Origin: an uncultured Acidobacteriota bacterium
Lineage (GTDB): Bacteria > Acidobacteriota > UBA6911 > RPQK01 > JAPXNP01
Assembly (NCBI GenBank): GCA_963777605.1
Contig: CAVZRV010000007.1
Coordinates: forward strand, 608,001 to 672,000
DNA: 64,000 nucleotides
Direction of reading: 5' to 3'
How positions within the stretch are numbered: position 1 is the stretch's first letter; each line of letters opens with the position of its first letter. The notes below the pieces were generated by a model. The model did no database searches and was not told the DNA's origin. It saw only the letters and a list, made by a program, of their open reading frames with translations. Shown piece after piece: positions 9,341 through 45,995 of the stretch. A program made the translations under genes and the position numbers.

Positions 9341-9382
9341 AAACCTGTTTCTATCAGCAAGGGCTGTTATTATCGTTTCATC

Positions 9383-12220: not shown

Positions 12221-12238
12221 ACGCACGCCCTGTGCCGA
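12221..12238 (-). promoter_or_regulatory. Candidate sigma54 promoter for the 107-aa orphan
   Basis: Minus strand TCGGCACAGGGCGTGCGT has GG-N10-GC spacing, ~58 nt above ATG 12164, next to a sigma54 activator gene. Confidence 0.5.
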
Positions 12239-12648
12239 AAATGGACAGCCGCTGGAGCACCGTCTCCGATTTCCATTCAAAGCACTTCATTCTGAGTTAC
12301 TTAGAAGAAATCGCCTCGAGCAGTTGCTCGACGGGCACGAACGAGATGCCCGACAACAAAGTAGACGGCAAAACCACCGCCGCATTCCCCGACTACTCAG
12401 GACAAAATCAATTAACTTGCTTTTCATCAACATGATACGAGTATCCTGGCGGGACGCGGCGCAATGTGAATCAAGTTGACAGTCCCGCAACAGCAATAAG
12501 GATTCCGCCGGGCCTCACGGTTGCATGAATTACCGACGCTGTGGAAGTCACCAACCACCGCTCGAAAGGTGCCGGCAAACGAAACTCGGGACGGGGTAAC
12601 TTCGTCCGGCTATCGGCAGTGTCTCCGCCGTCGGGATTGCCCGTTTCG

Positions 12649-29061: not shown

Positions 29062-30270
29062 CTATTGCCTGAGAATGAGCGCTGCGTTGTTTCCATCGCA
29101 ACTGAAGCCGGTTACCAGAACGTAGTCACCTGCGAGCCGTTGTGACTCCGCCGACAACTTGAGGTCCTCCGGCACTTCTTCGACCCCGGCTGTCGGGGGA
29201 AGTTCTCCACTCTCCAGCGCGCAGACTGCAACCGTGGCTGCGATCGCCGAGGATACTCCCAGCGCTTCGCCGCCGACCGCCTTGGGACAGGCAACGGGGA
29301 TTCCGGCAAGTCCGGACCCAAAGACCGCACGCAGCGCTTTCAGCTCCATTTCGTCCCCGGCCCTGCTGCCGCTGGCCCCGGAGACAATACCACCGATCTC
29401 CTCAGGTCCAATCCCGGCATCAACCAGTGCGCCTTGCATTGCTCTTACTGCCCCATCGGGCCGGGACGAGAACCGGGAGACAGAATGAGCGTCCTGGGCA
29501 TTGCCAAATCCGACCAGTCTGGCCAGCACGGGGGCGCTGCGCTCGGCCGCGTCCTCGGCTCGCTCGAGAACCAGCAATGCCGAACCTTCGCCCAGCACAA
29601 CGCCATCCCGAGTTGCCGAGAATGGCTTCACCCGACCGGTCTCGCTGAGCCACCCGTTCTTCCGAAAGCCGAGATAGGACTCCTCGGCAATCTCCTCTAC
29701 TCCGCCGGCGAGAAGCATCGATGCCCGTCCGAATCGCAGAGCATCGGAAGCATACTGGAGGGCAAGCAGGCCCGAGGCCAGTCCCGCCGAAATGGTCGAG
29801 TTGATGCCTCGAAGCTTGTGCCGGATAGCCGCCTGACCGGCGGGGGAGTTGATTACAGTGTTGGTAAACGCCATCGGGTTGACATACTTGACGCCATCCT
29901 CGAGGCCGCTCCAGTCGAAGGAAGCGATGCTGTGGACGCTTCCAAAGATGGTCCCACAGACGAGCCCTTCCTCCGGCTTTCCTTCACCGTCGTCGCTCAC
30001 CTCGCGGCCTACCGAAGAAAGCGCCAGCTGGGCAGCCACCGCCAGGAGGCGGGCGCTGCGGTCCAGTACCCTGATCCCCTTGGGGCCAAGCCAGGTCTGA
30101 GGTTTGAAATCCTGCACCTCGAAAACGGCGGGGCCGGTTTCCCCAATTTCGATTACGGAACTCGGCTTCACCTCGGGAACGGCTCTAAAAAGGGTCTTCC
30201 TGAATTCCTCCAGACCGGCCCCAAGTGGAGTAATCAAACCTGCTCCGGTAACAACAATCTCACTCGTCAT
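29062..30270 (-). CDS. Catalytically inactive beta-ketoacyl synthase (chain-length-factor-like)
   Basis: KS fold, but the Cys position reads SAGLASG and the His motifs read SGASGS and GGEA. Confidence 0.85.
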   Translation of the reverse strand: MTSEIVVTGAGLITPLGAGLEEFRKTLFRAVPEVKPSSVIEIGETGPAVFEVQDFKPQTWLGPKGIRVLDRSARLLAVAAQLALSSVGREVSDDGEGKPEEGLVCGTIFGSVHSIASFDWSGLEDGVKYVNPMAFTNTVINSPAGQAAIRHKLRGINSTISAGLASGLLALQYASDALRFGRASMLLAGGVEEIAEESYLGFRKNGWLSETGRVKPFSATRDGVVLGEGSALLVLERAEDAAERSAPVLARLVGFGNAQDAHSVSRFSSRPDGAVRAMQGALVDAGIGPEEIGGIVSGASGSRAGDEMELKALRAVFGSGLAGIPVACPKAVGGEALGVSSAIAATVAVCALESGELPPTAGVEEVPEDLKLSAESQRLAGDYVLVTGFSCDGNNAALILRQ

Positions 30271-30272
30271 CG

Positions 30273-31490
30273 TCAACGATCCCATCTCGCCAGGCAAAGG
30301 CTCGCGTTGTTCCCACCAAAGGCGTAAGCGTTGTTCAACACGATTTGAGGGTTGGTCTCCCGAGCCGTGTTGGGGACACAGTCGAGGTCGCACTCCGGGT
30401 CGGGCTCTTCGAAATTGATGGTGGGTGGAATTACCCCGGCTTGGAGAGCCAGCGCGCAGCCTGCCGCCTCGATTGCGCTGGCGGCCCCCATCGTGTGGCC
30501 CGTCATCGACTTGATCGAGCTCATGGGAAGCCGATCAGCCAGCGATTCAAACAGTCGGCGAGCCGCAATTGATTCTATCCGGTCGTTCGTCGGAGTCCCG
30601 GTGCCGTGCGCGCAAATATAGTCCACCTGGTCAAGGTTGACCCCGCTTTCCCGGAGGGCTCCCGACATCGCCCGCATCGCCCCATCCCCTTCCGGATGGG
30701 CGGCAGTCATGTGGTGGGCATCGCAACTGAGTCCGTATCCGAGAATTTCAGCATAGACGGTTGCTCCCCGCTTCAGGGCAGCGTCAAGCGGTTCCAGGAC
30801 AAGGATTGCAGCACCTTCCCCGGGAACCATCCCCTTACGATTCCGATCGAAGGGCTGGCACCGCTCGGGAGCAATGGCACCAAGGCGGGAGAAGCCCATG
30901 TAGGTAATCCGCGAGAACGCGTCCGCTCCACCCGCCAGCATGAGGTCGGCTCGTCCCAGCCTGAGCAGGTCGGTGGCGTTGCCGATTGCATAGTTTCCGG
31001 CCGCACAGGCAGTTGGAATCATTACACAGGGCCCGCGGACGCCAAATTCAATGGCCAGGTTGTCCGGGATCACGTGACAAGGGTACTTGGGGAAGATGTC
31101 GGCCGGAATCGCGTCGAACCCACCCGCGTTCCGGGCATCGTTGTACTGCTCCACGAACAACGGTTCTCCGGAAGTGGTGCCCATCGAGACGCCCACCCGG
31201 TAAGGATCGAAGCGTTCCAGTTCGATGCCGGCATCGGCGACAGCCATGTAAGCAGCCGCTACGGCCATCTGGGATGCCCTCCCGAGTTTGGCCGGATCCT
31301 GCCTTCGGACGTGCGCTGCCGGATCGAAATCCTTCACCTCCGCTCCCAGGTTTCCCGGAAAATCGGACGTGTCAAAGGACTGTACCGGCGCGATTCCACT
31401 CTTTCCGGAAGTGACAGCCTCCCAGAATACCTTCCTGCCGGAACCAACCGGAGTCACCAGTCCGATCCCGGTAATCGCGATTCTCTTCAT
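30273..31490 (-). CDS. Beta-ketoacyl-ACP synthase (FabF-like / type II KS)
   Basis: Intact triad: PTACAAG, AHGTGT, KSMTGHT; C-terminal NAYAFGGNNA. Confidence 0.95.
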   Translation of the reverse strand: MKRIAITGIGLVTPVGSGRKVFWEAVTSGKSGIAPVQSFDTSDFPGNLGAEVKDFDPAAHVRRQDPAKLGRASQMAVAAAYMAVADAGIELERFDPYRVGVSMGTTSGEPLFVEQYNDARNAGGFDAIPADIFPKYPCHVIPDNLAIEFGVRGPCVMIPTACAAGNYAIGNATDLLRLGRADLMLAGGADAFSRITYMGFSRLGAIAPERCQPFDRNRKGMVPGEGAAILVLEPLDAALKRGATVYAEILGYGLSCDAHHMTAAHPEGDGAMRAMSGALRESGVNLDQVDYICAHGTGTPTNDRIESIAARRLFESLADRLPMSSIKSMTGHTMGAASAIEAAGCALALQAGVIPPTINFEEPDPECDLDCVPNTARETNPQIVLNNAYAFGGNNASLCLARWDR

Positions 31491-31548
31491 ATTGCTCCCG
31501 CCTTTCGTCGCGACACTGGAACTCTTGGCCAACCACTCTCCGTCGGCC

Positions 31549-31809
31549 TTATGCCGCTGCCGACAAGTGCTTCATCACGACTTCAACGGCCTGGTCGACA
31601 TTCTTAATCTCACGGAATTCGTCTTCAGGAATGTCGATCTTGTACTCCTTGTCGAGGGCGACCATCAACTCGATCGCCATCAAGGAATCGACTCCAAGCT
31701 CATCCATGAAATCGGCGGTATCACTGATTTCCGAAGGTTCAACTTCGGTCAGTTCGGCCACCCTGTTTCGTACTTCTTCCCGGACCTTTTCAGCTGTGAT
31801 GTCAGACAT
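31549..31809 (-). CDS. Acyl carrier protein
   Basis: Acidic 86 aa with LGVDSL phosphopantetheine site; GAGGAGG RBS. Confidence 0.95.
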   Translation of the reverse strand: MSDITAEKVREEVRNRVAELTEVEPSEISDTADFMDELGVDSLMAIELMVALDKEYKIDIPEDEFREIKNVDQAVEVVMKHLSAAA

Positions 31810-31859
31810 TTACCCTCCTCATGAAGACTCACTTCAAAACTTCGATTTCAAAACAAGTG

Positions 31860-34800
31860 TTATTCCGAATGCGCGACTCCCGGAGCATCCGGACTACGTT
31901 CCTCGGTCAGAGACCGAATGAAGCGCAGGCCAGGCCGTGTGTTGTACTCCTCCCGGTACTGCCGGTGAGCAGGAGTATCGGGATAGGACTCCGTCGCGGG
32001 ATACGGATAGGCGGACATCCCGTGAAACGGGAGCGGTTCCACCGTTTGGGAGTAGGCCGTGTTCAAGTCTCCGTCCTTGGCCCACCCATCGACAAACAGA
32101 AGGAAGTCCCGGGTATACCCTTCGGGAACCGGCCCCAGGCGCTCGTCCGTGAACGTCAAGCGAATCTCGTCGCCCGACCCCATGATCAAAAACTGATCAT
32201 CGATCCCTCCCAGTAGCGCCGCCACGTCGCCGTACCGTGTGTAGAAACCCTTCGCCGGATTCCACATGGAAAGAGGCATCCACTTCGAGTAGTCGAACAC
32301 CTCGGGCTGCCTTCTTTGCGGGTGGATCACAGGGGTCGAGAAACCGCGATAGGACAGGTCTGCCTGGGCCAGTGAGAGGACAACAGGTTGAACCTTTGGA
32401 ACGGCCACGTCACGGCTCATGAAGATCTCGTCCCAGTAAACTGAGAGGCTGGTTACGATTCGCACTTTCCGGGAGGCCGAGAGGAACTTCCCGGTCAGGT
32501 CAACGACGATCGTCTTCGGCTTGCCTGCGGGAACGCCCATATCCTCGACTGCGGTCACCCACCGCCCGGAAGGATCCTGAACCTGGAGCTGAGGCATGAT
32601 CAGTTGCGCCGTCCGGTCCTGAGCCAGGCGACGGATGGTGCTTCCGTCCGCCCAGTCTACCCAGCCGTTCAGCACGAGAATCGCCGGTTCTCCAATTGAT
32701 CGTGCGGATCCGAAATCGAGCTCCACGAAGTGCTTTTCAGCGACCCCGAGGAAGTCCCGCTCAAATGCATCCGGATAAGTCCTGTCCAGTTTGCGGACGC
32801 GGTCCCTGACATCATTTCCACGATCGTCGAATGCCGCCACGGGGTACTGGCGATCCCGCACTCCATAAAGACGGAACTTGGGAAACGGCGGGGACTTGAA
32901 CTTGTCACTGGTGAAGATGGATTCACCAGCAGGATGGTCTACGGCCAGGAGTTGCACCTTGTCGATGTAACCCACCTCCCGCAGTTCCTCGGTGATCCGG
33001 ACCTCGTAGTGTCCATCGCCATTCTTCGCCATTGCTCCGGCCGGGATCTGGACATACTCATCATGGTCTACGGGAAAGAATACTCCCTCCCCGGCTGCGG
33101 CTCCCAGCGGCGCGACTCCGAGAACGTCGGTAATGAACTGGAACTTCTTCCCATTCCAGGTGAATACCATGGGGCATGAGCCCGAAAGTCGCTGTTTCTC
33201 CTTGTAGACGATGGCCCGATTGACGTCCTGCTCCGGCTCATTCTGGATCAACCCGTTCGGCCAGGTTATGCGAACGGTATCGATCTTGGAGTGGGTACCG
33301 AGCCCGACGTGAATCGGCCGGCCGTCGTAGATCCGCTTCTGGTACAAAGACCCCGCCTTGATCTCGACCTCGGCCGACGGTGCCTCGCGGAGGTTTCGGA
33401 CCCCCTCGAGGCCAATCACGTTCCAGTTGCCTTCCGCACCCCTTCCTTTCAGACAGGACACCGCTCCGTCCTGCCCCAGCACAACGAGGTCGATCTTACC
33501 GTCCTGGTCGAGGTCCCCCGCGTCGATTGCAACGGCTCCGGCCAACGCCGGAACCTCGACACCCGGACCAAACTCACCCCTGCCCTGGTTCGGGAATACC
33601 TTTCCGGCGAAAGCAAGATCGGAGAATCCACGATTCGCCATGTCCGCAGGCGTCGCGCGACCTGTCGATTCGATCACTGCGCCTGCCGAGAACGAGCCTT
33701 CTCGATTGATGATCAGCTGGACGCCTCCGGGCGTATGAGCCAGGAGATCGGTCCACCCGTCGTTGTCCACATCGAAGGCCCGGAGTTCCGATACCTCCTT
33801 TGGCAGAGCCTCGATTTCTTTCGGCTCGTAGCTGCCCGCGAGCATGTCACGGTACAGGACAGCCGGATGATTCACGTACGCGAAGACGAGGTCCGTCCCG
33901 TTGGTGTCCTTGATCAAGTCTACTGAAGCCGCCGCCGAGACATCTCCATCGACAAAGGGAAATTCAGTCGTGGAGTCGACAAATCCCGATTTCCCGCTGT
34001 TGCGCAACAGCGCGTGTCCCTTGCCAAGGAGGAAGAGATCCAGGTCAGAGTCATGATCCAGGTCGTGCCAGAGAGAGAAGTCGTACTGACCGTCATTCGC
34101 GGACTCCTGCTGCGCGATAAATCCGGAAGCATCTCTCTTGAGAAGGACCACACGGCGATCGGTAACCACGCTCAAATCGAAGAGGCCGTCGTTGTCGAAA
34201 TCGGCGGCAGTGACACTGCGAATAGTCTCCCCGGCATCTGCGTCGAACGCGATTACGGGATCTCCTCCAGGCGAAGAGGGCACCATCCGGACCTGCCGGT
34301 CCGTCCAGGCAATGGTCTCGGTCGTGCCGTCCGCTTGACGGTCTCCCACGACAATTCCCTCAGGAGTGCCTTCCAGTTTCCCACCCATGACTTCAGAGTC
34401 GAACGACAACGCCGACTGGAACTTGGCGGCACTCAGGGTCGGCGCCGCAACCGGGTCTACCACGTCCAGGATCTCGGAAAAAAAACTCCAGTCGAGATCT
34501 TCCGGGATCGCAGCTCCGGACTGTCGTCGCTTATTTTCGTTGAACTTCGCGAGCGCCCGATCAGCTTCGGCCTCCCGACCGGCGGCCTTGTAGGCGTTAA
34601 AGAGCTGAAAGTAGGGACCGGCAAGGCTTGGCCCGAGGCGAGCTGCTTCCTCGAACTGCTTCAGCGAGCCCGACGCATCGCCGGTCAGCTTGAGGACCAC
34701 TCCCAGATTGTAGTGAGAGATCGGCTCGTCGGGAACCAATTGGACCATCTTCTCGAATTGTTCCCGAGCCTTGTCATATTGGGCGGCCTTTTTGAAGATG

Positions 34801-35126
34801 ATGCCCAGGTTGAACCAGGTGTGGGGAATCTGGGGAGCGTCCTTCTGCACCGCTTCCAGTTCCGCAATCCCCTCATCGGTCTTTCCAGCCCGCAGGAGGG
34901 CCAGACCATAATTGATTCGTTCTCTCGGAGAATCCGGCGCAAGCTCAAGAGCCTTCTTGAACATGTCGACGGCCTGGTACTGGGTCGTCGGGTTCTCATA
35001 GAACGCCTTGCCCAGGTTTCGGTACTGCCAAAGTTCATCGCTCTCAGAACTGTTCGCCCGGTTGAAGGCCACACTGCCGACCAGAATCAGCAGAGCGGCC
35101 AACAAACCTATTCTCTTAATGGTCAT
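31860..35126 (-). CDS. Exported TPR + FG-GAP + ASPIC/UnbV multidomain protein with a large C-terminal domain
   Basis: Signal peptide, TPRs (HTWFNLG, HYNLG), DxDxDG repeats, HVGLG..IDTVRITWPNG, then SCPMVFTWNG. Confidence 0.88.
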   Translation of the reverse strand: MTIKRIGLLAALLILVGSVAFNRANSSESDELWQYRNLGKAFYENPTTQYQAVDMFKKALELAPDSPRERINYGLALLRAGKTDEGIAELEAVQKDAPQIPHTWFNLGIIFKKAAQYDKAREQFEKMVQLVPDEPISHYNLGVVLKLTGDASGSLKQFEEAARLGPSLAGPYFQLFNAYKAAGREAEADRALAKFNENKRRQSGAAIPEDLDWSFFSEILDVVDPVAAPTLSAAKFQSALSFDSEVMGGKLEGTPEGIVVGDRQADGTTETIAWTDRQVRMVPSSPGGDPVIAFDADAGETIRSVTAADFDNDGLFDLSVVTDRRVVLLKRDASGFIAQQESANDGQYDFSLWHDLDHDSDLDLFLLGKGHALLRNSGKSGFVDSTTEFPFVDGDVSAAASVDLIKDTNGTDLVFAYVNHPAVLYRDMLAGSYEPKEIEALPKEVSELRAFDVDNDGWTDLLAHTPGGVQLIINREGSFSAGAVIESTGRATPADMANRGFSDLAFAGKVFPNQGRGEFGPGVEVPALAGAVAIDAGDLDQDGKIDLVVLGQDGAVSCLKGRGAEGNWNVIGLEGVRNLREAPSAEVEIKAGSLYQKRIYDGRPIHVGLGTHSKIDTVRITWPNGLIQNEPEQDVNRAIVYKEKQRLSGSCPMVFTWNGKKFQFITDVLGVAPLGAAAGEGVFFPVDHDEYVQIPAGAMAKNGDGHYEVRITEELREVGYIDKVQLLAVDHPAGESIFTSDKFKSPPFPKFRLYGVRDRQYPVAAFDDRGNDVRDRVRKLDRTYPDAFERDFLGVAEKHFVELDFGSARSIGEPAILVLNGWVDWADGSTIRRLAQDRTAQLIMPQLQVQDPSGRWVTAVEDMGVPAGKPKTIVVDLTGKFLSASRKVRIVTSLSVYWDEIFMSRDVAVPKVQPVVLSLAQADLSYRGFSTPVIHPQRRQPEVFDYSKWMPLSMWNPAKGFYTRYGDVAALLGGIDDQFLIMGSGDEIRLTFTDERLGPVPEGYTRDFLLFVDGWAKDGDLNTAYSQTVEPLPFHGMSAYPYPATESYPDTPAHRQYREEYNTRPGLRFIRSLTEERSPDAPGVAHSE

Positions 35127-35150
35127 GGTTGTTTTCCCAAGTAATTGGGC

Positions 35151-36890
35151 CTACTTGGAGGCTTTGCCCGCAGGCCCCGATACGATGCCCTTGCCTTCTT
35201 CCACTACCGACAGCTGGTTCAGGGGCGGGGAAATCGTTTCCACAGCGCCACTGGGCCAGCGGATTTCAAGCTGGTCAACCTGATTAACGGTGCCCATGCC
35301 AAAGTGCACCCGAAAACTGCTGGCCGCTGAGTAGCCGTTTCCGCCGACCACTTCGCGAATCTGGGACTGGCCGCCGGACTTCAAGGTGACCCGGGCACCG
35401 ACAGCGTCCCGGCTCGAGCGGGTTCCCTGGAGCTGGAGCGTAATCCAGTTCCCTGGGTTCGAGGTCTGGTTCCGGTAAAGAAGCGCCGGTTGATCCGCAT
35501 TGGTCTGGTAAATGTCGAGCAGTCCGTCACCGTTGAAGTCCGCAATAGCGACTCCACGTCCGTCCAGGTCGTTGTCGACCCCGGCTTCACCGGAAACTTC
35601 CTTGAAGACATGCAACTGGCCCAGGTTCTGAAAGAGCTTGCTCTTCTGGTACCCGCTCCAGCTCATGTTCTTGATTTCGGGCCAGCTGGAAAGGTCGCTG
35701 AAATCGACCCCGGGGGTGATGATCATCTCTACGAGCACCGGGATGTAGTTGTCGTCGCTGGCCGACCGCAGCCCGTTGACGGCAAAGAGATCCTGCCAGC
35801 CGTCATTGTCGAAGTCTGCAAATTTGGCACCCCATCCCCACAACGTGTCGCACGTCCCGGTCTCCCGCGAAAGATCGGTAAACGTTTCGTTGCCGTTGTT
35901 GTGCCAGAGCATGTTGCATTCTTTCATGTACTCGTCGGTAATGTTGGTGACGTACACATCCAGGAAACCGTCGTTGTCGTAATCGGCAACGTCGGCGTTC
36001 ATGCCCTTCTTGGTGTCGAAACCGATCCCCGACTCGGTCGCATCGCGAAAGCTCCCGTCGCCGTTGTTGAAATAGAGCTGGTCGGTCCCATAGTCGCTGG
36101 CCACGTAAAGATCCTGCAGCCCGTCATTATTGAAGTCGCCGTGCCCAACGTCGAGTGTCCAACCATGATAAATGTCCAACCCGGCTTTCGACGTGGCATC
36201 TTCAAAGTGCCCCTTCCCGAGGTTTCGCCACAGGCCGACGCCTCCCCCGTTCTTGGCATTGTCGAGGTCCTTCGGGAGTACCTGGGTGGTCTTCAGGTCC
36301 AACAGGTTGTATGGCCCGAAATAGTTTCCGAAGATGACGTCGAGCAGCCCGTCGTTGTCGTAGTCAACCACCGTCACCGAGAGCGTGTTGGCGAACTTGT
36401 CGATGCCGCAGCCGGCCGATACATCCTTGAAGGTACCATCACCCTGGTTGTGATACAGCAGCGGCGTCCCGAAACGGGCGACCAGGAGGTCCTTCCAACC
36501 GTCGTTGTCATAGTCGAAAAAGATCGCGTCAGCGACTACGGTGTCGGGGGCGTTCCCTCCGCCCACGCCTGCCTTTTCGGTCTGGTCGGAAAAGGTGAAG
36601 TTCCCTTCGTTCCGATAGAGACGGCTGCTCGTCCCTTCGTCGGAGTTGGTGACAAAGAGGTCTTCGAGACCGTCATTGTCATAGTCTCCAACCGCGGATG
36701 AGGCCCCACCCGCCGTAAACATGCCGAGTACGTCCGAGTGCGGACCCTTGAACTTTCGAGTCTTATGCAAGTGCCTGACACCGGCCTGCTCGCCGATCTC
36801 TGCAAACCGGATCCCCTTCTCGGAGCTGTCATTGGCAGCCGCCAGGCCTGTCCCAGTCAAAAGAATCATCAATGCGATTGCGGTTCTCAT
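35151..36890 (-). CDS. CRTAC1-family FG-GAP/ASPIC-UnbV protein
   Basis: Signal peptide, repeated DYDNDG motifs, RDAVGARV and HFGMG..EIRWPSG. Confidence 0.92.
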   Translation of the reverse strand: MRTAIALMILLTGTGLAAANDSSEKGIRFAEIGEQAGVRHLHKTRKFKGPHSDVLGMFTAGGASSAVGDYDNDGLEDLFVTNSDEGTSSRLYRNEGNFTFSDQTEKAGVGGGNAPDTVVADAIFFDYDNDGWKDLLVARFGTPLLYHNQGDGTFKDVSAGCGIDKFANTLSVTVVDYDNDGLLDVIFGNYFGPYNLLDLKTTQVLPKDLDNAKNGGGVGLWRNLGKGHFEDATSKAGLDIYHGWTLDVGHGDFNNDGLQDLYVASDYGTDQLYFNNGDGSFRDATESGIGFDTKKGMNADVADYDNDGFLDVYVTNITDEYMKECNMLWHNNGNETFTDLSRETGTCDTLWGWGAKFADFDNDGWQDLFAVNGLRSASDDNYIPVLVEMIITPGVDFSDLSSWPEIKNMSWSGYQKSKLFQNLGQLHVFKEVSGEAGVDNDLDGRGVAIADFNGDGLLDIYQTNADQPALLYRNQTSNPGNWITLQLQGTRSSRDAVGARVTLKSGGQSQIREVVGGNGYSAASSFRVHFGMGTVNQVDQLEIRWPSGAVETISPPLNQLSVVEEGKGIVSGPAGKASK

Positions 36891-36895
36891 TAGTC

Positions 36896-37627
36896 TCACC
36901 ACACTTCTGAAAGGTTGGTGCTCACGCGCACGTTCGGGTCATAGGCGACCTTCACGATCGACATCAGTTCATCATCCGAGGCCGCAAGCCGCTTCTGCAG
37001 GTCCGGGCTGCCCGGGAACTCCGCAAGACCTTTTTGCCACGCCTCGCGCGCTTTGGCGGGTTCTTCATTCTTGAAGTAGCCATCCCCAAGCGAGACCCAG
37101 GCCCGCACGTGATAGGGTTGCTTGCCCAGGCTGTTGCCCAGTTTGATGGCAGCTTCCAGATCATCGATTCCAAGCTGCGTCCGGTTGAAGATCTTGGGCC
37201 AGAAAAGGTAGCTGTTTCCTCGCGTATACAGACCGATCCAGGTCGGTTTGATCTCGACCGACTTCGTGAAGTAGGAGAGGGCCGTGTTGGCGTTGATCAC
37301 CTGCGTGATTGCCCCGGCATCGGGAATTTTGTCGACGTAAGCGAACCCGAAGTTTAAGTAGGCATTGGATGCCTCCGGGTGATCCGCTACGAGTTTCTCG
37401 AAGAATGCGATGCAGCGGTCATAAGCCTTCACCTTGATGATGGCCTGACGATATTCGCTGCCGTACTTCAGGTTGTCAGGATCGGCAGTGAGTGCAGCCT
37501 CGAAATGATCGAGCGCTGACTCCACGTTGCCCGACGCAACCGCCTCGGTCGCCTCACGAAAATCCTGCTCGGCGTCGGCGGCCGGAGCAAACATCAACAA
37601 CGCCAGTAACACGTTGAGTTTCAGCAT
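36896..37627 (-). CDS. Exported TPR protein
   Basis: Signal peptide ending PAADA; TPR-like helices (AYLNFGFAY, AWVSLGDGY). Confidence 0.85.
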   Translation of the reverse strand: MLKLNVLLALLMFAPAADAEQDFREATEAVASGNVESALDHFEAALTADPDNLKYGSEYRQAIIKVKAYDRCIAFFEKLVADHPEASNAYLNFGFAYVDKIPDAGAITQVINANTALSYFTKSVEIKPTWIGLYTRGNSYLFWPKIFNRTQLGIDDLEAAIKLGNSLGKQPYHVRAWVSLGDGYFKNEEPAKAREAWQKGLAEFPGSPDLQKRLAASDDELMSIVKVAYDPNVRVSTNLSEVW

Positions 37628-37647
37628 AGTTCGTTACCTCTTATAAG

Positions 37648-37669
37648 GGGCACCGTCTCAACGGCGCCC
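37648..37669 (-). other. Intra-operon RNA hairpin
   Basis: Minus strand GGGCGCCGU-UGAG-ACGGUGCCC, a 9-bp stem just upstream of the TPR gene RBS. Confidence 0.45.
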
Positions 37670-37679
37670 ACCCTGTACT

Positions 37680-39407
37680 TCAGTGGTGTTCCCACGTCAT
37701 CGGTTCGATTGCCCCGCCCTCGGTGACCGTGTACACCCGGTCTGCGGCAACACCCTCGAACGCCTGCACGGTCCCCGATGGCCATCGCACTTCCACTTTG
37801 TCGATCTTCGATTGGTCCGCGAGGCCGAAATGGACCCGCAAGGTGCTTTGTGAGGCGAAGCCATTTCCCCCGTTGACAAAGCTGAGCTGGGTGCGTCCGC
37901 CGGACGTGATGCGCACCTGGGCTCCGACGGCATCGCGGTTCGAAAGGGTGCCTTTCAGTTTGAACTGAACCCAGTTGGTCTTTTCGTTCTGCGGGACCTC
38001 ATTGCGGAACAGCTCCGGTGTTGAATTCGCGTTGGCCACAAATAAATCCAGACGCCCGTCGTTGTCCAGGTCGGCGACCGCGATGCCGCGGCCATCCTTA
38101 AGGGAGTCGAGGCCAAATGTCGGAGCCTGGTCCGTGAAAAGCCCCCCGTGCTGATTGTGGAAAAGCCGGCTGCGCTGGTATCCACTCAGGGTCTTGTTTC
38201 CCATCGGTGGCCAGCTTCTCGCATCGGCCAGATCGATTCCCGGCTGGACGATCACCTGAAAGATGTCCAGGACATAGTTCTCCTTGCCGGCCGATACCCA
38301 CCCGTTGACCACGTAGAGATCTCGCCAACCATCGTGATCGTAGTCGAAAAATTTGCCGGCCCATCCCCAACCCGTGTCGTAGGTGTCGGTCTCTCTCGAG
38401 ACATCCGAAAAAGTCAGGTTCCCATTGTTGCGCCAGAGGAAGTTCCCTTCCCTCATGTATTCGTCAGTGATGTTGGTGACATAGATGTCGAGGAACCCGT
38501 CGTTGTCGTAGTCGCCCCAATCGACATTCATCCCTTTCTTGGTGTCGATGCCGACCGCCTTTTCCGTGATATCCGCGAAGTGCCCGTCGCCCAGGTTCTC
38601 GAAAAAGCGATCCGTGCCGAAATCACAGGCGATGTAAAGATCATCATCTCCATCGTTGTCAGCATCGGCATGGCCAAGGTCGAGGGTCCAACCGCTTAAT
38701 TTGAATCCGATCTCGGCCGACACTTCGTTGAAGGTCTTGTCGCCATTGTTGCGATAGACGAGCAGGCCGCCACCGTTGTTGGCAGTCTCGAAGCTCTCGG
38801 GAAAGAAGCGGGGCGTGTCCGGGTTGAAGACATTGACATCTCGAAAGTAGCCGCCGACGAAAAGATCGAGGTCGCCGTCCCGGTCATAGTCGAAGACGAT
38901 CCCGGTGATGCTGTTCATGTACTGCGTCAGGCCGGCCTTTTCAGTCACATCGGCAAAGGTTCCATTGCCCTGGTTCTCGTACAGGATCTCGGTACCAAAC
39001 CGAATCACCAGAAGGTCGGAATCCCCGTCATTGTCATAGTCGAACCAGAGCGCATCGGCACACGCGTTCGCCTTGTCATTTCCGCCGGCAACGCCGGCCT
39101 GCTCGGCAACATCGGTGAAGGTGAAGTCTCCGTTATTGCGATAGAGATGATTCTTGCCGTCCAGCTTCGAGTCGGTCACGTAAAGGTCTTCGTAGCCGTC
39201 GTTATTGAAATCACCCACCGCCACTGCTGCCCCGAGCGCCGTGTAGCCCTCCATGATGTGCGCGTACTGGTTGTCGAACGAACGATTGGTATGCGGATAG
39301 GCCACCCCTGCCGGACCGGAAACCTCTTTGAACCAGTCCGGTCCGGGTTCATCCGAAACCGGGGCCAACAGTGCCAAAATCGCGGTAAGAATCGCCAACG
39401 GTATCAT
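37680..39407 (-). CDS. CRTAC1-family FG-GAP/ASPIC-UnbV protein
   Basis: Signal peptide, DYDNDG repeats, NRDAVGAQV and HFGL..EVRWPSG; ATGA overlap with the upstream gene. Confidence 0.92.
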   Translation of the reverse strand: MIPLAILTAILALLAPVSDEPGPDWFKEVSGPAGVAYPHTNRSFDNQYAHIMEGYTALGAAVAVGDFNNDGYEDLYVTDSKLDGKNHLYRNNGDFTFTDVAEQAGVAGGNDKANACADALWFDYDNDGDSDLLVIRFGTEILYENQGNGTFADVTEKAGLTQYMNSITGIVFDYDRDGDLDLFVGGYFRDVNVFNPDTPRFFPESFETANNGGGLLVYRNNGDKTFNEVSAEIGFKLSGWTLDLGHADADNDGDDDLYIACDFGTDRFFENLGDGHFADITEKAVGIDTKKGMNVDWGDYDNDGFLDIYVTNITDEYMREGNFLWRNNGNLTFSDVSRETDTYDTGWGWAGKFFDYDHDGWRDLYVVNGWVSAGKENYVLDIFQVIVQPGIDLADARSWPPMGNKTLSGYQRSRLFHNQHGGLFTDQAPTFGLDSLKDGRGIAVADLDNDGRLDLFVANANSTPELFRNEVPQNEKTNWVQFKLKGTLSNRDAVGAQVRITSGGRTQLSFVNGGNGFASQSTLRVHFGLADQSKIDKVEVRWPSGTVQAFEGVAADRVYTVTEGGAIEPMTWEHH

Positions 39408-41740
39408 TTCTCTTCCACCTCGAACCGTTTCGTCTCGAGATTGTCGACGCCCTCGGTGACCACGACAATCTGGTTTGCCTCTACTCCCGTGAACCGCTGA
39501 ACAGTTCCCGTCGCAGGCCACAGAATCTTCAACTCGTCCACAGTTTCCGCATCTCCGATTCCGAAATGCTGCCGGAGGGAGCTTTGAGAACCGTAACCGT
39601 CACCAAGAACGACTTCGGTCGTCTGCAGACGGCTCCCGTTGGTGACCGTGACACGGGCACCAACGGCATCCCGATTCGACTTTGTTCCAACCAGCTCAAC
39701 TTCCAACCAGTTCCGATTCTTGCCGACTTCGTTCTTGAGCAGGGCGTGGCGGTCCGTCGAAGCGGAAACTGCGATGTCCATCACGCCGCGGTTCCAGAAG
39801 TCCGCAACCGCAACGCCGCGGCTGTTGGTCAGCAGATCGTCACCGGCCGGCCGGCCGATCTCCACGAAAGTCCCGTCTCCGTTGTTCCTCAGCATTCGGT
39901 TGCGCTCCCATCCGTGCCATGAGATCTGACCGAAGTGATTGGGATCGAAGAAGATTCCGGTCTTGTAGTCAGCCTGTCGACTGACCACGTTGTTGAGAAA
40001 ATCGAGCTCGATCTCGGTTCCCGGATCGTTGTAGACCCAGCCGTTGGCGGCGTAGATGTCCTTCCAGCCATCGTTGTCGTAGTCGTACATTCCGGCGCCC
40101 CAGAACCAGCCAGGCGGATTGGCTGAGGCGTCCCAGCTGACATCCTCGAAAGTACCGTCACCCTTGTTCTGCAGCAGCGTGTTGCCCGAGGCCATCTGCT
40201 TAAACACCCCGACGAACCCAAAGCCGGACTGACGGAAGATCTCCCAGTAGAGAGGCATGTCGCTCAGCCAGACGCCTTGGGCGAAGGAATTGTACATGTA
40301 GCGGCGAATTGTGGGCGCCTCGGCAAACCAGGCATGATCGGAACGGATATTGGTGACGTAGATGTCCAATTTCCCGTCATTGTTGTAGTCACCCATGGTC
40401 GCGTTCATGCCCGCGCCATAGGCCAGCGTATTGGACTCGACGGTGACGTCCGTAAAGGTCCCGTTTCCGTTATTGCGGTAAAGGGTGTTGCGCCCGAAAT
40501 CGTTAACAGCGTAAAGATCCGGCCACCCATCGTCGTTGTAGTCGCCGAACACGGTGCCGAGACAAAGCCCGACCTCGCCAACGCCCGCTTCCTTGGTTAC
40601 GTTCGAAAAGGTCCCGTCGCCATTGTTGCGATAGAGCTGGTTGGGCTCGCCGTTCCTGGCATAGAAGGTGGTCGGGATGTCCAGGCGCGGATCCAGGTAT
40701 CGTCCGACGTAAAGGTCGATATAGCCGTCGTTGTTGTAGTCGGCCCAGGACGCGACTGTCGTACAACAGTCTTCCCCGATTCCCGTCTGAGCCGTCACGT
40801 CGGTGAACGTCCCGTCGCCGTTGTTGCGGAAGAGCTGATTCGGCTTGAACGTCCGACTGATAAAAGCGTCCTTGTCGCCGTCGTTGTCGTAATCAGCAAA
40901 GACGCCAACGCTGACACCGTCCAACCCGGCAAGACCGGAGGACTCGGTCACATCGTCGAAAGTGCCGTCCTTGCGGTTTCGGAAAAGGCGCGACTCCACG
41001 CCGTCGGGGATGAAAAGATCGTAGTAGTCGTCGTTGTCGTAATCTACCGCCGCAATTCCTCCGGGACCGTAGATGATCATCGCGAACTTGAGATCACGGT
41101 TCAGGAATCCCGGAAAGAACTGGTTCTCGAAGTCAACGCCGGCCTCTTTCGCGATGTTGACAAACTGTCGCTCGTCGGAAATCAGGCGACCTCCCTCGAC
41201 CAGCTCGGCGCCGATAATTTTCAGCGGGTCGCCCGGGAGGAATCGCATTCGGAAATTGGCCCGATCCACTCCGGAAAGGACGGCTCCCCTCGGGGTACCC
41301 AGGACTTCAAAGCGGACCGTTGCCGTCCACTCCTTCGACGACTTCCACTCTTCCAGGCGGTTAACGAAAAACCGAACCTCTTCGATGTTCTCAAAATTCT
41401 TGAAGTAGTCAACCCATTCGGAGACCGCGCCTCGCTGATCGGCATTGTCGCCGGATGGAGCGAAGCGATACTCACGAATGCCGTCCTTCTCCCTGAACAA
41501 GTCGAGCCGGTCCAGGCCCAACACCTTGCCCTGGTAGGAGACATCAAAATGACTCCCGAAGCCGTCGATGTCTCCGGCTTCAATCTGCTTGGAAATTCCA
41601 CCAAGAAAGAGGCTGATCTTTTTGCCCGTGTCAAAGAACTGCAAAGAATCGCTGTTGATTTTGTGAACAATAAAACCACCAGCCACTATGAGAACAACTA
41701 AGGCAACCGCGATCAGGGTGATACGGCGCGTTTTCGACAT
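39404..41740 (-). CDS. Membrane-anchored CRTAC1-family ASPIC/UnbV protein with an extra N-terminal domain
   Basis: N-terminal TM helix, ~170-aa extra domain, DYNNDG repeats, NRDAVGARV and HFGIG..ILWP. Confidence 0.9.
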   Translation of the reverse strand: MSKTRRITLIAVALVVLIVAGGFIVHKINSDSLQFFDTGKKISLFLGGISKQIEAGDIDGFGSHFDVSYQGKVLGLDRLDLFREKDGIREYRFAPSGDNADQRGAVSEWVDYFKNFENIEEVRFFVNRLEEWKSSKEWTATVRFEVLGTPRGAVLSGVDRANFRMRFLPGDPLKIIGAELVEGGRLISDERQFVNIAKEAGVDFENQFFPGFLNRDLKFAMIIYGPGGIAAVDYDNDDYYDLFIPDGVESRLFRNRKDGTFDDVTESSGLAGLDGVSVGVFADYDNDGDKDAFISRTFKPNQLFRNNGDGTFTDVTAQTGIGEDCCTTVASWADYNNDGYIDLYVGRYLDPRLDIPTTFYARNGEPNQLYRNNGDGTFSNVTKEAGVGEVGLCLGTVFGDYNDDGWPDLYAVNDFGRNTLYRNNGNGTFTDVTVESNTLAYGAGMNATMGDYNNDGKLDIYVTNIRSDHAWFAEAPTIRRYMYNSFAQGVWLSDMPLYWEIFRQSGFGFVGVFKQMASGNTLLQNKGDGTFEDVSWDASANPPGWFWGAGMYDYDNDGWKDIYAANGWVYNDPGTEIELDFLNNVVSRQADYKTGIFFDPNHFGQISWHGWERNRMLRNNGDGTFVEIGRPAGDDLLTNSRGVAVADFWNRGVMDIAVSASTDRHALLKNEVGKNRNWLEVELVGTKSNRDAVGARVTVTNGSRLQTTEVVLGDGYGSQSSLRQHFGIGDAETVDELKILWPATGTVQRFTGVEANQIVVVTEGVDNLETKRFEVEEK

Positions 41741-42059
41741 CCCAGACCTCCCTACAGAGCCCGCTACATGGTTCGGCGAAGCGCTACAGGTTTCGAACAA
41801 GTTAACAACGGATCTAAACACAAAGAGCAATAATGAGGATGGATTTTATTTTACTTTCATACTCCGAATCAAGTACCCGGGCCGATATCTTCAGACGTGT
41901 AATCTGGCTCGGACCGGGCCTTCCCAACCGGGGCAACGCCTCGATCTGTCGTAACCGGCTGCAGACACAAAGAATCCCCATGTGCACCGCTCCCACGCAA
42001 AGGCGAGTCTCTGCGGGAAACTCAGATTGGGTAACGCTTTCGAGAAACTGAAGATTCCT

Positions 42060-43487
42060 CTACCGGGACGGCCAGAACACCGCATGGAAACCCGGATGAG
42101 TCTTCTGCTCGAGCGGGAGGCGAACGACTGGGCCCTTTCCCAGTTCGAATGCAGGTACCAGAAGAAACGAGACTCGATCCGCTTGGGAATCATACTCCTG
42201 AATGATGATCATTCCTTCAGTTTCGTTTCCTGTTTTTCCAACGAAAACCGGCTCACCTCCGAAATAGCAGCCGGGAAGCGCCTTGTAAATCTCATCCACA
42301 GCGCCGGAAGCCCAGTCCCCGCGAACCAGTTGGTCGAAGAACTTCCGCCCGGGCGACCCGGCATCGGAAATCCCAAGCATCCAGAAGTTGTCATACTCGC
42401 CGCCCACTTGCGAGGGAATCACCGAGGGGAAGTCGGGAGAACGGTCGTAGGTCATTTCCCACCGCGCAACCAGTTCGCCCGTCGAAAGATCGATCACGTA
42501 TCGAACCGGGCGGCCGCGATCGATGTTCTGGTAGAACTCGGGCACCGGCTGGTACTCGGGATAGACGGGCCGTCGGTACTCGACAATGTCCAGGTAGAAG
42601 CGGTCGCCGGCCTCGAAAGCATTGATCAGGTGCAGGCAATGTCCGCCTTCCAGGTCAATCTTAATCGAATCACGGTCCCGTCCGATCCGGGGAACGATCA
42701 ATATGTAACTTCCCTTTTCCGGCCGCCACTCGAGCGCTTCCATGACCGAGGCGCCTTCGTTCCAAAACCGGCCGAAGTCCAGCTCGAGAGGACTGAGGAA
42801 GAAGGCCGCGTAGTTGGCCGTGATGGCAAAGTCATGATTGGTGTGAGGCGCCTCGACCGGGAATCTCCTGCGGCCAAGCAGCACTCCGTCAGGACTGAAC
42901 TCGTAGAGATACAAAACCGGGTGAGTCGTCGAGAAGCTGATCCCGAAGTTGAGCATGTTGCCGCTCGCGGGATCAAACTTCGCGTGTGCAGCAAACGGGC
43001 TGACGTCGTTCAACCGGCCCCCGAAATCAAACTCGGCACGCGTCTCGAGGCTCTCCGGATCGAGTTCATACGGAATCGACTGCTCGGCGAACGCGAGCAG
43101 TCGATCGCCCAGGGGATAGATGCTCACATTGACCGGGGGCTCGAGCATGACTTTCCGGCGAAGGACGTCGCCCTCAAACCCCGTGCCGAAGGTCCGATAA
43201 ATCGCTTTTCCGGCGGCTTCCTCCTCCCGGAGTTTCCGCGTCTTGACATATCGGCTGGTGAAGTGGACGCCACTCGAATCGAACCGCAGGGCGCGTACCA
43301 TCCCGTCTCCGTCGAGCCAATGGCGGTACTTCACTCCGCCACGCTGGAATCGAGCCGGCCCGTTTACGTAGTAGGTACCGCGCAGCCAGGTGGGGATTTG
43401 GCCCCCTTCCGGAACAATAGATTGCGCCGCTTCAGCCTCCTCAAACAGGATCCATGACTCGATGCCGGGGGCAAAGTCCGTCGTCAT
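42060..43487 (-). CDS. Carotenoid oxygenase (RPE65/lignostilbene dioxygenase) family protein
   Basis: GTYYVNGP and HWLDGDGM; four candidate Fe-ligand His (FAAHAK, NHDF, CLHLINA, GFHA); GEPVFV. Confidence 0.93.
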   Translation of the reverse strand: MTTDFAPGIESWILFEEAEAAQSIVPEGGQIPTWLRGTYYVNGPARFQRGGVKYRHWLDGDGMVRALRFDSSGVHFTSRYVKTRKLREEEAAGKAIYRTFGTGFEGDVLRRKVMLEPPVNVSIYPLGDRLLAFAEQSIPYELDPESLETRAEFDFGGRLNDVSPFAAHAKFDPASGNMLNFGISFSTTHPVLYLYEFSPDGVLLGRRRFPVEAPHTNHDFAITANYAAFFLSPLELDFGRFWNEGASVMEALEWRPEKGSYILIVPRIGRDRDSIKIDLEGGHCLHLINAFEAGDRFYLDIVEYRRPVYPEYQPVPEFYQNIDRGRPVRYVIDLSTGELVARWEMTYDRSPDFPSVIPSQVGGEYDNFWMLGISDAGSPGRKFFDQLVRGDWASGAVDEIYKALPGCYFGGEPVFVGKTGNETEGMIIIQEYDSQADRVSFLLVPAFELGKGPVVRLPLEQKTHPGFHAVFWPSR

Positions 43488-43644: not shown

Positions 43645-44040
43645 ATGAAGACTGAATTGGGCATCTCGACGCAGCGACGCATCCAACTGAAGAGCATCAC
43701 TCGACAAGTCCAGGAAGAAGTTGACAAGACGGGCATTCAGAACGGGGTCTGCGTGGTCTTCAATCCGCACACTACAGGAGGGCTTGTGATCAATGAGAAT
43801 GCCGACCCGGATGTCGCCACGGACCTCGAACGGGCGTTCGAGGAAATGGTTCCGTCGGTCCCGTTTCGACACGCAGAGGGCAACTCTCCAGCGCACTTGC
43901 TGTCTTGCGTTGCCGGGCATTCACTGCAGATTGTCGTCGAAGGGGGCCAGCTTCAACTGGGAACGTGGCAGGGCGTCTACTTCTGCGAATTCGACGGTCC
44001 CCGCCACCGCAAAGTCTGGATCAAAGTGCTCGCCGACTGA
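43645..44040 (+). CDS. yjbQ: YjbQ/UPF0047 family protein
   Basis: HTTGGLVINENADPDV, HAEGNSPAH and LGTWQGVYFCEFDGPR. Confidence 0.93.
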   Translation: MKTELGISTQRRIQLKSITRQVQEEVDKTGIQNGVCVVFNPHTTGGLVINENADPDVATDLERAFEEMVPSVPFRHAEGNSPAHLLSCVAGHSLQIVVEGGQLQLGTWQGVYFCEFDGPRHRKVWIKVLAD

Positions 44041-45045: not shown

Positions 45046-45101
45046 TCCTTCCTCCTTTGACTTCCTGCAGAGGCATCTTCCCCGAGAGGAGCCTCTCCCC
45101 A

Positions 45102-45911
45102 CTACATCATCAATTGTTCGAACAGCTCGTCCGGCTCGTAGCGAAGCCCAATGTAAAACAACCCGAACTCCGCGAACCGGGCGCTCGCTTCGTCGTACCG
45201 CATCTCGTAAAGCAGTTTCTTGAAGAAATAAGGGTCATCGGCAAAAAGGGTGACGCCCCACTCCCAGTCATCGAGGCCGATCGAACCGGTCACCAGCTGC
45301 CGCACGGTAGCGTGAAACCGCCGACCGGTGATGGCGTGCCCGGCCATGAATTCCTTCCGGGCATCGAAATCGAGGAGGTACCAGTTCTCCCGGTCTCCCC
45401 GCTGCTTGTTCATGGGGTAGAAGCAGAAAACCCGGTGATCGGGCAGCTTTGGGTAGAGGCGATCATTAATGTAGACCTGCATGCGCGCCTTGAAGTCGCC
45501 CATCTTCTGCTGATAGAGGGCAGAGTCCGGCTCGAGACCTTCCTTCTCGCGCAAGGTCCGATCGTAGTCCTTGTCCTGGGACATGTATTCGGAAATTTCG
45601 CTGACCGAGATGAACGAATCAACCCGCCGGAGCACTCCCGCTCCCAGAGCCGAAGCCAGTTCGTACTCGGTCCGGTTGAGATGCCTGAGATCGGGATCCA
45701 CCAGCATCACCGCAAGATCGGCCTTGAGGCCCCAGATCGAGTAGACGTTGGCCTGGCAATTCTGACCGGCGCGAAACGAATCGATCAACTCGCGGAACTT
45801 CGCCTTTCGCTCGCCTTGTTCCTCGCTGCCGAGCGAGTCCCAAAGCAAGCGGTCAACTTCAAAAAACAGGTGAGATACAAACCATCCTTCGTGAGCATTT
45901 ATGGGATCCAT
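45102..45911 (-). CDS. hemQ: Coproheme decarboxylase / chlorite dismutase family protein
   Basis: [20 protein letters not shown] and [15 protein letters not shown]; [16 protein letters not shown]. Confidence 0.88.
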
Positions 45912-45995
45912 ATTAGGGCTACTATAGGCCAGGAGCCCAGGGCAAGGCAAAGTCCCCGGGCTCAGAAGAACCGGGAAAAAGGGTATGATGTTTTC

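Follow-up and report, generated by a model that had tools for sequence, protein, structure and literature searches.

A ketosynthase pair of the anammox Cluster I family is encoded with ASPIC proteins and a carotenoid-type oxygenase in a conserved acidobacterial gene block

In anammox bacteria, a gene set named Cluster I (kuste3603-3608 in Kuenenia) encodes amxACP, amxFabZ, amxFabF2, amxFabFmut, a phytoene-desaturase-like protein and a B12 radical SAM protein. According to a preprint from the Barends laboratory (bioRxiv 10.64898/2026.05.19.726425), which reports crystal structures of the amxFabF2/amxFabFmut heterodimer alone and with C8-ACP, these two proteins form a complex resembling a ketosynthase (KS) and its chain-length factor (CLF), which decarboxylates malonyl-amxACP and thereby starts the chain; crosslinking favoured C6-C8 over C16, and mass spectrometry gave acetoacetyl-ACP only. 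The abstract calls Cluster I unique to ladderane producers, and the same text leaves the function of the cluster itself unproven. As regards bacteria other than anammox, Sharrar 2020 merely reports that antiSMASH makes 'ladderane' calls there. In the present study we have analysed a stretch of 64,000 nucleotides (hereafter the window; G000:C7:608001-672000) from an uncultured Acidobacteriota bacterium with a genome assembly (G000) of 6.7 Mb, 96.7% complete and in 53 contigs. Its minus strand carries, at 29062-43487, a block of nine genes for a KS pair of this same family, a discrete acyl carrier protein (ACP), four proteins of the UnbV/ASPIC family, a TPR protein and a carotenoid-type oxygenase (CCO).

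Several other described systems share features with this block. The minimal sets of type II polyketide synthases (PKSs), such as the actinorhodin KS/CLF (1tqy) and the highly reducing ishigamide enzymes Iga11/Iga12 (6kxd), have in common with it an active KS, an inactive tunnel-shaping homologue and a discrete ACP, all encoded by adjoining genes. Enediyne cassettes contain UnbV_ASPIC domains, and the enediyne protein UnbV (E4) and the ASPIC/CRTAC1 family share with the proteins described here FG-GAP repeats followed by UnbV_ASPIC, a predicted export and a genomic tie to a carrier-protein chain builder. In soil Acidobacteria and Planctomycetes, few exported proteins of unknown function are as abundant as the ASPIC/UnbV proteins, and to our knowledge no function has been described for UnbV or for the bacterial ASPIC proteins. 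A literature search on ASPIC/UnbV gave no functional account and returned only a paper on a Solibacter paralogue family; a search on UnbV surfaced no paper containing that word. The CCO shares with the carotenoid, apocarotenoid and stilbene oxygenases a full-length RPE65 domain and four His-containing motifs.

The nine genes and the ketosynthase pair

The block consists of nine intact, long open frames in the same orientation, with the Pfam content exactly as first listed. From upstream to downstream, they and the only long spacer are:

42060-43487, minus strand: CCO, Pfam RPE65 (E 3.8e-99), without signal peptide
41741-42059, minus strand: CCO-ASPIC1 spacer, 319 bp, with one weak sigma-70-like site at 41872-41843
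39404-41740, minus strand: ASPIC1, 778 aa, Pfam FG-GAP_3 and UnbV_ASPIC, predicted to be membrane-anchored
37680-39407, minus strand: ASPIC2, Pfam FG-GAP_3 and UnbV_ASPIC, predicted to be exported
36896-37627, minus strand: TPR protein, 243 aa, Pfam TPR families, predicted to be exported
35151-36902, minus strand: ASPIC3, Pfam FG-GAP_3 and UnbV_ASPIC, start at GTG 36902 or ATG 36890
31860-35126, minus strand: TPR-ASPIC, 1088 aa, Pfam TPR, FG-GAP_3 and partial UnbV_ASPIC, predicted to be exported
31549-31809, minus strand: ACP, 86 aa, Pfam PP-binding (E 1.3e-15)
30273-31490, minus strand: KS, active FabF-like ketosynthase (Pfam), Cys162/His295/His332
29062-30270, minus strand: dead KS, ketosynthase fold, Leu/Gly/Glu replacing Cys/His/His

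The layout given in the initial annotation (nine co-oriented genes free of frameshifts, an ATGA overlap at 39404-39407, a 2-bp gap between the KS genes and an oxygenase about 320 bp upstream of the rest) is borne out by direct inspection. At 39407-39404 the start of ASPIC2 overlaps the stop of ASPIC1, and the KS stop (30275-30273) is followed after 2 bp by the dead-KS ATG (30270-30268). From ASPIC1 through to the dead KS, no gap between the eight genes exceeds 58 bp, and 319 bp lie between the CCO stop and the ASPIC1 ATG (41740). Upstream, a YjbQ gene (131 aa, 43645-44040, plus strand) points away from the CCO, and the minus-strand run therefore begins at the CCO. A promoter scan of the region gave 4 sites where 4.3 are expected by chance, with promoter and terminator counts at or below chance; since the number of sites matches the chance expectation, the sigma-70-like site in the spacer provides no evidence.

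The alignment of the active KS with chain B of PDB entry 9s5h places an intact triad, Cys162/His295/His332, in the motifs TACAAG, AHGTGT and KSMTGH, while its partner shows Leu, Gly and Glu at these positions. The inactive partner is well conserved, with 76% mean column identity over six orthologues, and an alignment of 12 dead-partner homologues shows the Glu of the second His position without exception and a substitution of the cysteine in every sequence. Chain C of 9s5h, whose triad positions are Val/Asn/Glu, has this same Glu. A reading of the dead KS as a Cys-to-Ser change (NSTIS) was ruled out, the alignment putting Leu at the cysteine position and Gly and Glu at the histidines. Among solved structures, the KS scores clearly highest with 9s5h_B (496 bits), followed by Thermus FabF (336), the ishigamide KS Iga11 (6kxd, 323) and the actinorhodin KS (278), and the best match of the dead KS is 9s5h_C (245 bits); a manual count gives approximate identities of 62% for the KS to 9s5h_B and 40% for the dead KS to 9s5h_C. 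Of the NCBIfam models, TIGR03150 FabF gives the KS 430.6 bits, under the cut-off of 493.75, and the subfamily 'beta-ketoacyl-ACP synthase II' 414 bits, over the cut-off of 387. A separate FabF-like gene is located on another contig (G000:C29:104608-105825).

A phylogeny of 131 KS-fold rows from the retrieved loci, calculated with FastTree (local SH-like support), gathers the partnered active KSs in one clade of 53, four of them from anammox-lineage loci, and the dead partners in one clade of 54 that also includes anammox-lineage loci. Both clades have a support of 100, and 24 lone FabF-like rows fall outside them. The outgroups of this tree are what the dead-KS profile retrieved, with no type II PKS, aryl-polyene, HR-T2PKS or FabF1XL/FabF2XL references among them, and the comparison with PKSs is covered by the PDB bit scores. 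Judging from these sequence comparisons, KS and dead KS are members of the family to which the anammox amxFabF2/amxFabFmut pair belongs. The earlier assignment to the KS/CLF of type II PKSs, aromatic or polyene-forming, does not hold in the usual sense, since the partner has Leu instead of Gln, the KS is closest to 9s5h_B with PKS ketosynthases at 278-323 bits, and both proteins group with the anammox pairs.

The entry 9s5h and its companion 9s5i, which also holds an ACP chain, are probably the anammox amxFabF2/amxFabFmut heterodimer, because chain C has Val/Asn/Glu as in Kuste3606 (Val163/Asn298/Glu333 in Table 2 of Rattray 2009, PMC2649909) and the residue numbers Cys165/His298 agree with chain B once shifted by five. 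By analogy with the anammox complex, heterodimer formation and malonyl-ACP decarboxylation are predicted for the window pair. The adjacent ACP shows the DSL phosphopantetheine motif in its translation and scores under all NCBIfam ACP cut-offs.

The CCO covers positions 17-468 of the 469 positions of the Pfam RPE65 profile, and its best solved relative is the Synechocystis apocarotenoid oxygenase (ACO, 2biw) at 181 bits. Three His motifs (AAHAKFDP, NHDFAIT and LHLINAFE) align with ACO, and the tail contains a fourth, GFHAVF; we take the histidines of the four to be the iron-binding ligands. The protein lies under every NCBIfam equivalog cut-off (for instance, 167 bits against 800 for lignostilbene dioxygenase) and corresponds to the single PF03055 match of the genome, no other RPE65 gene having been found there.

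Read by eye, the N-terminus of ASPIC1 (MSKTRRITLIAVALVVLIVAGGFIV) resembles a signal anchor, and those of ASPIC2 (MIPLAILTAILALLAPVSDE), the TPR protein (MLKLNVLLALLMFAPAADAEQ) and ASPIC3 resemble signal peptides. A signal peptide or anchor appearance is common to all five ASPIC and TPR proteins and is not seen in the CCO, the ACP or the KSs. ASPIC1 has about 250 N-terminal residues beyond its Pfam domains, and TPR-ASPIC is formed by N-terminal TPRs, FG-GAP repeats and a partial UnbV_ASPIC domain, followed by an unannotated C-terminal region of about 450 aa. In the ESM Atlas, the C-terminal part of TPR-ASPIC matches uncharacterised acidobacterial clusters only, and the unannotated parts of TPR-ASPIC and ASPIC1 match only uncharacterised ASPIC/FG-GAP clusters. 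ASPIC3 is 47-49% identical to ASPIC2-type orthologues, and the two are thus considered paralogues. The UnbV_ASPIC matches of the genome are often paired or clustered (for example C27:383085/384818, C8:189926/191611 and C31:142732/148938), and one of them (C50:44037-44237) contains one in-frame TGA.

Conservation of the block and its wider neighbourhood

Six of 15 other genomes of the same family that were searched have an orthologue of the dead KS (55-70% identity), and none turned up in 25 genomes from other families of the order. The named relatives carrying the locus are all uncultured Acidobacteriota, and their loci read as follows:

G002, G010, G014 and G005: all nine genes, in unchanged order
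G001: eight genes, ASPIC1 through dead KS, with the CCO 14.5 kb downstream on the same strand and unrelated genes between
G006: contig end too near to judge

Protein identities across the conserved blocks are 50-86%, and orthologues of the TPR protein (58-70% identity) occupy the same position in five related genomes. The flanks vary: the Cld and xylose-isomerase genes recur in G002 only, in G010 and G014 the gene after the dead KS is a convergent ASPIC gene, beyond which G014 alone shows a cytochrome/TPR gene. The conserved order together with the differing flanks indicates that the block is kept as a unit. Co-location of the KS/ACP, ASPIC and oxygenase genes in other genomes, by which the initial annotation proposed to judge its reading, is therefore found in four genomes, plus a fifth without an adjacent CCO.

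A wider search gave the same association for ASPIC1. Orthologues with at least 62% identity occur in 11 of the 401 genomes of the phylum, and ten of these 11 also possess a KS/dead-KS pair, even though such pairs are rare in the sample (14/401 at E 1e-70 or better). Orthologue and pair stand in one block in the six f1 genomes, and G026 encodes the orthologue some 8 kb upstream of its pair, in the same orientation; G204 and G035 have the two on separate contigs, and the assembly of G391 is fragmented, its dead KS (54% identical) belonging to a contig with just 376 bp upstream of the ACP. Genes similar to ASPIC1 at 43% identity were also located downstream of pairs, at 3 kb in G241 and at 12.5 kb in G045. 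The tallies of the same-family, phylum-pair and ASPIC1 searches include one unpublished genome (G018), which gave one lone FabF-level match and is otherwise matchless, and on which no positive claim is based. The two ASPIC1-like frames (G241:C9:27126-29531 and G045:C2:66778-69048) contain one in-frame TGA each.

In order to compare neighbourhoods across species, a profile of 12 dead partners was used to retrieve 80 loci from a one-genome-per-species collection, 55 with a dead partner and 25 with only a lone FabF-like gene, the latter taken as an approximate control. The loci were scored by tblastn with the window proteins and proteins of richer loci for genes within about 10 kb, and gene calling in high-GC loci was GC3-weighted. 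The counts (pair loci; lone-FabF loci) are:

CCO: 22/55; 0/25
HMG-CoA-reductase-like (HMGR-like) protein: 29/55; 0/25
CrtI-like flavoprotein: 29/55; 1/25
halogenase-like flavoprotein: 25/55; 0/25
PlsC-type acyltransferase: 14/55; 0/25
any ASPIC-family gene: 15/55; 0/25
TPR-ASPIC orthologue (47-61% identity): 8/55; 0/25

These numbers are lower bounds, since many loci are cut by contig ends, and no P value is attached to them because related species are not independent. The loci with a TPR-ASPIC orthologue include one from Holophagales and one from Thermoanaerobaculia. Ten of the 55 pair loci show none of CCO, HMGR-like, halogenase-like and CrtI-like genes, two of these being relatives of the window itself, cut at 10 kb. 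Representative arrangements are:

L052, Acidobacteriota: on a single strand, TPR-ASPIC, cytochrome/TPR protein, ASPIC, ACP, KS, dead KS, HMGR-like, SDR, CrtI-like, TetR, acyltransferase and CCO
L074 and L063, Thermoanaerobaculia and Holophagales: runs similar to L052
L072, L079, L087, L091, L093 and L117, mostly Thermoanaerobaculia: compact KS, dead KS, halogenase-like and CCO, with the ACP upstream confirmed in L072 and L091
L068, Poribacteria: on a single strand, FabA-like, ACP, KS, dead KS, HMGR-like, CrtI-like, ASPIC, ASPIC and acyltransferase
L059, Kuenenia hertensis (7845-14159): ACP, FabZ, KS, dead KS, CrtI-like and B12 radical SAM, that is, a classical Cluster I

In the L059 run the active KS is upstream of the dead one, in contrast to section 12 of the preprint, where amxFabFmut is said to be encoded just upstream of amxFabF2 (10.64898/2026.05.19.726425). 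One locus of Thermoanaerobaculia (L098:1041-12465) has tandem KS/dead-KS cassettes, the first followed by HMGR-like, halogenase-like and CCO genes and the second by HMGR-like, CrtI-like, acyltransferase and ABC1 genes. A large protein with C-terminal TPRs and a weak Cytochrome_C554 match, the latter not in the L052 copy, is encoded at L052:1194-4067, L074:3705-6719 and L063:3892-5742; in these three distant loci its gene is paired with a further ASPIC gene, and the two separate TPR-ASPIC from the ACP. The protein is also present in L047 on the opposite strand and in G014, in the gene pair convergent to the dead KS, and is absent from the window.

Within the window, Pfam reveals no tailoring enzyme besides the CCO. 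By using the proteins of L052 and L072 as queries, single strong orthologues of the companion genes were located on the same contig C7, in a second locus:

G000:C7:419062-432688 (L129, L130), minus strand: second locus, about 205-218 kb from the window cluster

The run at C7:425149-432688 encodes, from upstream to downstream, HMGR-like, FabG-like, CrtI-like, TetR, acyltransferase and ABC1 kinase proteins, and about 4.4 kb of ArsA-like and unknown frames separate the ABC1 kinase from a halogenase-like gene (C7:419062-420753). Identities to the query orthologues are 62% (HMGR-like), 60% (CrtI-like), 49% (acyltransferase) and 49% (halogenase-like). Since these genes are contiguous elsewhere, we consider that the window lineage split a cluster and kept the CCO and ASPIC block with the synthase. 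The HMGR-like protein reaches 321 bits with TIGR00533, under the cut-off of 441.8. In the genome (96.7% complete), no HMG-CoA synthase (PF08540) match and no mevalonate kinase over cut-off were found, and DXR is present, so that a role of the HMGR-like gene in a mevalonate pathway is unlikely. The motifs GxGxxG and WxWxIP define the flavin-dependent halogenase family; the halogenase-like protein has both (GAGLAG and WFWVIP), as have all four homologues checked. Against family models it scores low (CmlS, 52.8 bits with the cut-off at 900), so that halogenation is put as likely only. The PlsC-type acyltransferase (L129:6796-8535, minus strand, 579 aa) has about 200 N-terminal residues that weakly match NAD-dependent reductase/epimerase models (residues 78-287). 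Such a reductase-acyltransferase fusion presumably resembles the C-terminal half of the myxobacterial ether-lipid enzyme ElbD.

The comparison with Cluster I can now be made. Common to both are an adjoining active KS and triad-less partner with a discrete ACP, the Glu at the second His position of the partner, and a CrtI-like flavoprotein, which in the anammox-lineage loci L058-L060 follows the pair and is 35-37% identical to the acidobacterial one. Unlike Cluster I, neither the window nor the second locus has a gene for FabZ or a B12 radical SAM protein, and the only Cluster I companion in the two loci is the CrtI-like gene, about 205 kb from the window cluster. The acidobacterial clusters have HMGR-like, acyltransferase, halogenase-like, CCO and ASPIC genes, none of which tblastn detected in anammox-lineage loci. 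Furthermore, the first two triad residues of the partner are Leu/Gly in the window and Val/Asn in anammox bacteria, the window ACP is not notably similar to amxACP, and the host is an aerobic-type soil acidobacterium with nothing pointing to ladderanes. The lack of FabZ and radical SAM genes and the quite different tailoring set indicate that the window locus is not of the Cluster I type. The CCO likewise differs from the known carotenoid and stilbene oxygenases in its genomic partners, which are the KS pair and the halogenase-like protein and not carotenoid or lignin genes.

A proposed pathway and competing explanations

The nine genes very probably form a true functional unit that is linked with the wider cluster. 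Whether they are also one locus of a larger, conserved and undescribed pathway, which assembles a small acyl chain on a carrier protein of its own and tailors it, is in our judgement evenly balanced, and each single chemical step of the scheme below is considerably less secure than that. By analogy with the anammox enzyme, the KS/dead-KS heterodimer would prime itself and, with the adjacent ACP, use malonyl units to make an acyl- or beta-ketoacyl-ACP of short or medium chain length, assisted by housekeeping FabD and FabZ. The FabG-like reductase of the second locus may reduce the keto group. The further tailoring enzymes would be those encoded about 205-218 kb away, in other Acidobacteriota in the same run as the KS pair: the orphan HMGR-like enzyme would carry out a four-electron thioester reduction, probably to the alcohol or aldehyde, the CrtI-like flavin enzyme would desaturate the chain, the halogenase-like flavoprotein would halogenate it and the acyltransferase would transfer it. 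The single CCO may cleave a C=C bond in the product or in a precursor. The four ASPIC propellers and the TPR protein would then act outside the cytoplasm, either by binding, carrying or modifying the exported product or on the envelope into which it passes. A modified envelope lipid or a lipid-derived small molecule seems to us the most likely product.

Several observations weigh against this proposal. The gene data single out neither a substrate for the oxygenase nor a ligand for the ASPIC proteins, and the window contains no dehydratase, FabD-type acyltransferase or thioesterase. The ACP is no closer to 9s5i_E (38.8 bits) than to a mitochondrial ACP (50 bits), and the preprint text gives no PDB code, nor did a literature search for '9S5H' return a relevant paper, which leaves the identity of 9s5h as deduced from its residues and numbering. 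The remaining points concern the link between the two halves of the block, and they give substance to the strongest rival, in which an ordinary ASPIC/TPR envelope or adhesion module and a self-contained lipid trio (ACP, KS and dead KS) share a transcript by chance, only the link between trio and CCO being functional. UnbV_ASPIC proteins form a large paralogous family in this genome (25 PF07593 matches, often in small clusters); 40 of the 55 pair loci show no ASPIC gene within 10 kb and 33 no CCO, many of them contig-cut, which suggests that the trio works without ASPIC neighbours in most lineages. Over the stretches fetched, the trio stands among unrelated genes in G241, G292, G204, G387 and G142, although in G241 the ASPIC1-like frame lies about 3 kb past the end of that stretch; in G204 orthologue and pair are split across contigs. 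G407 has a 66%-identical ASPIC1 orthologue and lone KS hits only, with no adjoining pair seen, and a strict dependence of ASPIC1 on the pair is thereby weakened. Finally, the ASPIC proteins are predicted to be exported and the synthase is cytoplasmic, that is, in different compartments. What speaks against a chance transcript is that ASPIC genes occur near 15 of the 55 pair loci and near none of the 25 controls, that in Holophagales, Thermoanaerobaculia, Multivoradales and their relatives the neighbouring genes are particular orthologues (47-77% identity) and not paralogues taken at random (about 30-37%), that the poribacterial locus L068 has two ASPIC genes between the CrtI-like and acyltransferase genes on one strand, and that a pair accompanies the close ASPIC1 orthologue in ten of 11 genomes. 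We regard this rival as rather unlikely, yet deserving more weight than the other two.

The model of the initial annotation, in which a type II PKS makes a conjugated polyene that the oxygenase cleaves and UnbV-type proteins process in an enediyne-like manner, draws on the KS/dead-KS/ACP layout, on Iga11, a polyene KS, being among the top PDB matches, on the UnbV_ASPIC domains of enediyne cassettes, and on the CrtI-like desaturase and C=C-cleaving oxygenase of the wider cluster. It conflicts with the bit scores, in which 9s5h_B and FabF precede Iga11 and the actinorhodin KS, and with the Leu at the cysteine position; the Gln of an aromatic-type CLF is missing, and the KS is not nearest to a KS-alpha. 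The window has no cyclase, aromatase or dedicated ketoreductase or dehydratase, and no type I PKS, enediyne-type or other, beside the missing thioesterase, the search for the enediyne PKS and other cassette genes having been confined to the window. In addition, the related anammox enzyme preferred C6-C8 to C16 in the crosslinking assays and yielded only acetoacetyl-ACP by mass spectrometry. We consider this model improbable. Of the overall interpretation made there, the co-location of the genes and the absence of a described counterpart stand, and the usual type II PKS does not; its polyene product and periplasmic complex are conjectural, and the genes of the second locus lay beyond the reach of that annotation. 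Less probable still is that the trio represents a second housekeeping elongation set, a FabF paralogue with a decayed duplicate, without a dedicated product and with irrelevant neighbours; the KS does pass the cut-off for 'beta-ketoacyl-ACP synthase II' and the CCO is the sole tailoring enzyme in the window, but the genome has its separate FabF-like gene, the dead partner is well conserved with its invariant Glu, the pair clades are apart from the lone FabF-like genes, and the neighbours are strongly non-random.

The preferred reading remains that of an acyl chain built on a dedicated ACP and tailored by the products of both loci. Literature searches found no described cluster with this layout, with the combination of KS pair, CCO, HMGR and halogenase, or with a link to ASPIC proteins, in agreement with the initial annotation, which knew of none. 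The association of a private ACP, a KS/CLF-like pair, an orphan HMGR homologue, CrtI-like and halogenase-like proteins, an acyltransferase and a C=C-cleaving oxygenase is an undescribed combination, and the coupling to ASPIC/TPR genes and the split arrangement are new here. The preprint abstract (10.64898/2026.05.19.726425) calls Cluster I unique to ladderane producers, whereas pairs of this type are frequent among Acidobacteriota and occur also in Poribacteria and other phyla, with enzyme neighbours unlike those of Cluster I; this wider range affects the reading of the anammox genes. The repeated, orthologue-specific link to a biosynthetic cassette provides a concrete and testable lead on the role of the ASPIC proteins. 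A bolder idea, which we hold to be doubtful, is that the ASPIC/UnbV propellers are the extracytoplasmic arm of a widespread pathway comprising a ladderane-type pair, private ACP, HMGR release, desaturation, halogenation, CCO cleavage and ASPIC/TPR processing of a lipid or signal. If true, bacterial ASPIC/CRTAC1 proteins would for the first time have a functional context, there would be a clue to the role of UnbV in enediyne biosynthesis, and the anammox 'ladderane' KS pair would be an offshoot of a much broader lipid-tailoring system.

Flanking genes

The genes on both sides of the block are of unrelated housekeeping types, including a SpoU methylase, an aminotransferase, a xylose-isomerase-fold protein and a chlorite-dismutase-fold protein. 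A plus-strand frame of 664 aa (45057-47051) overlaps a minus-strand chlorite-dismutase-fold gene (minus-strand frames at 45102-45950 and 46011-47048). Its DsbA/thioredoxin match is confined to the last 160 residues or so; the true DsbA-like gene probably starts far later, the long frame being an artefact.

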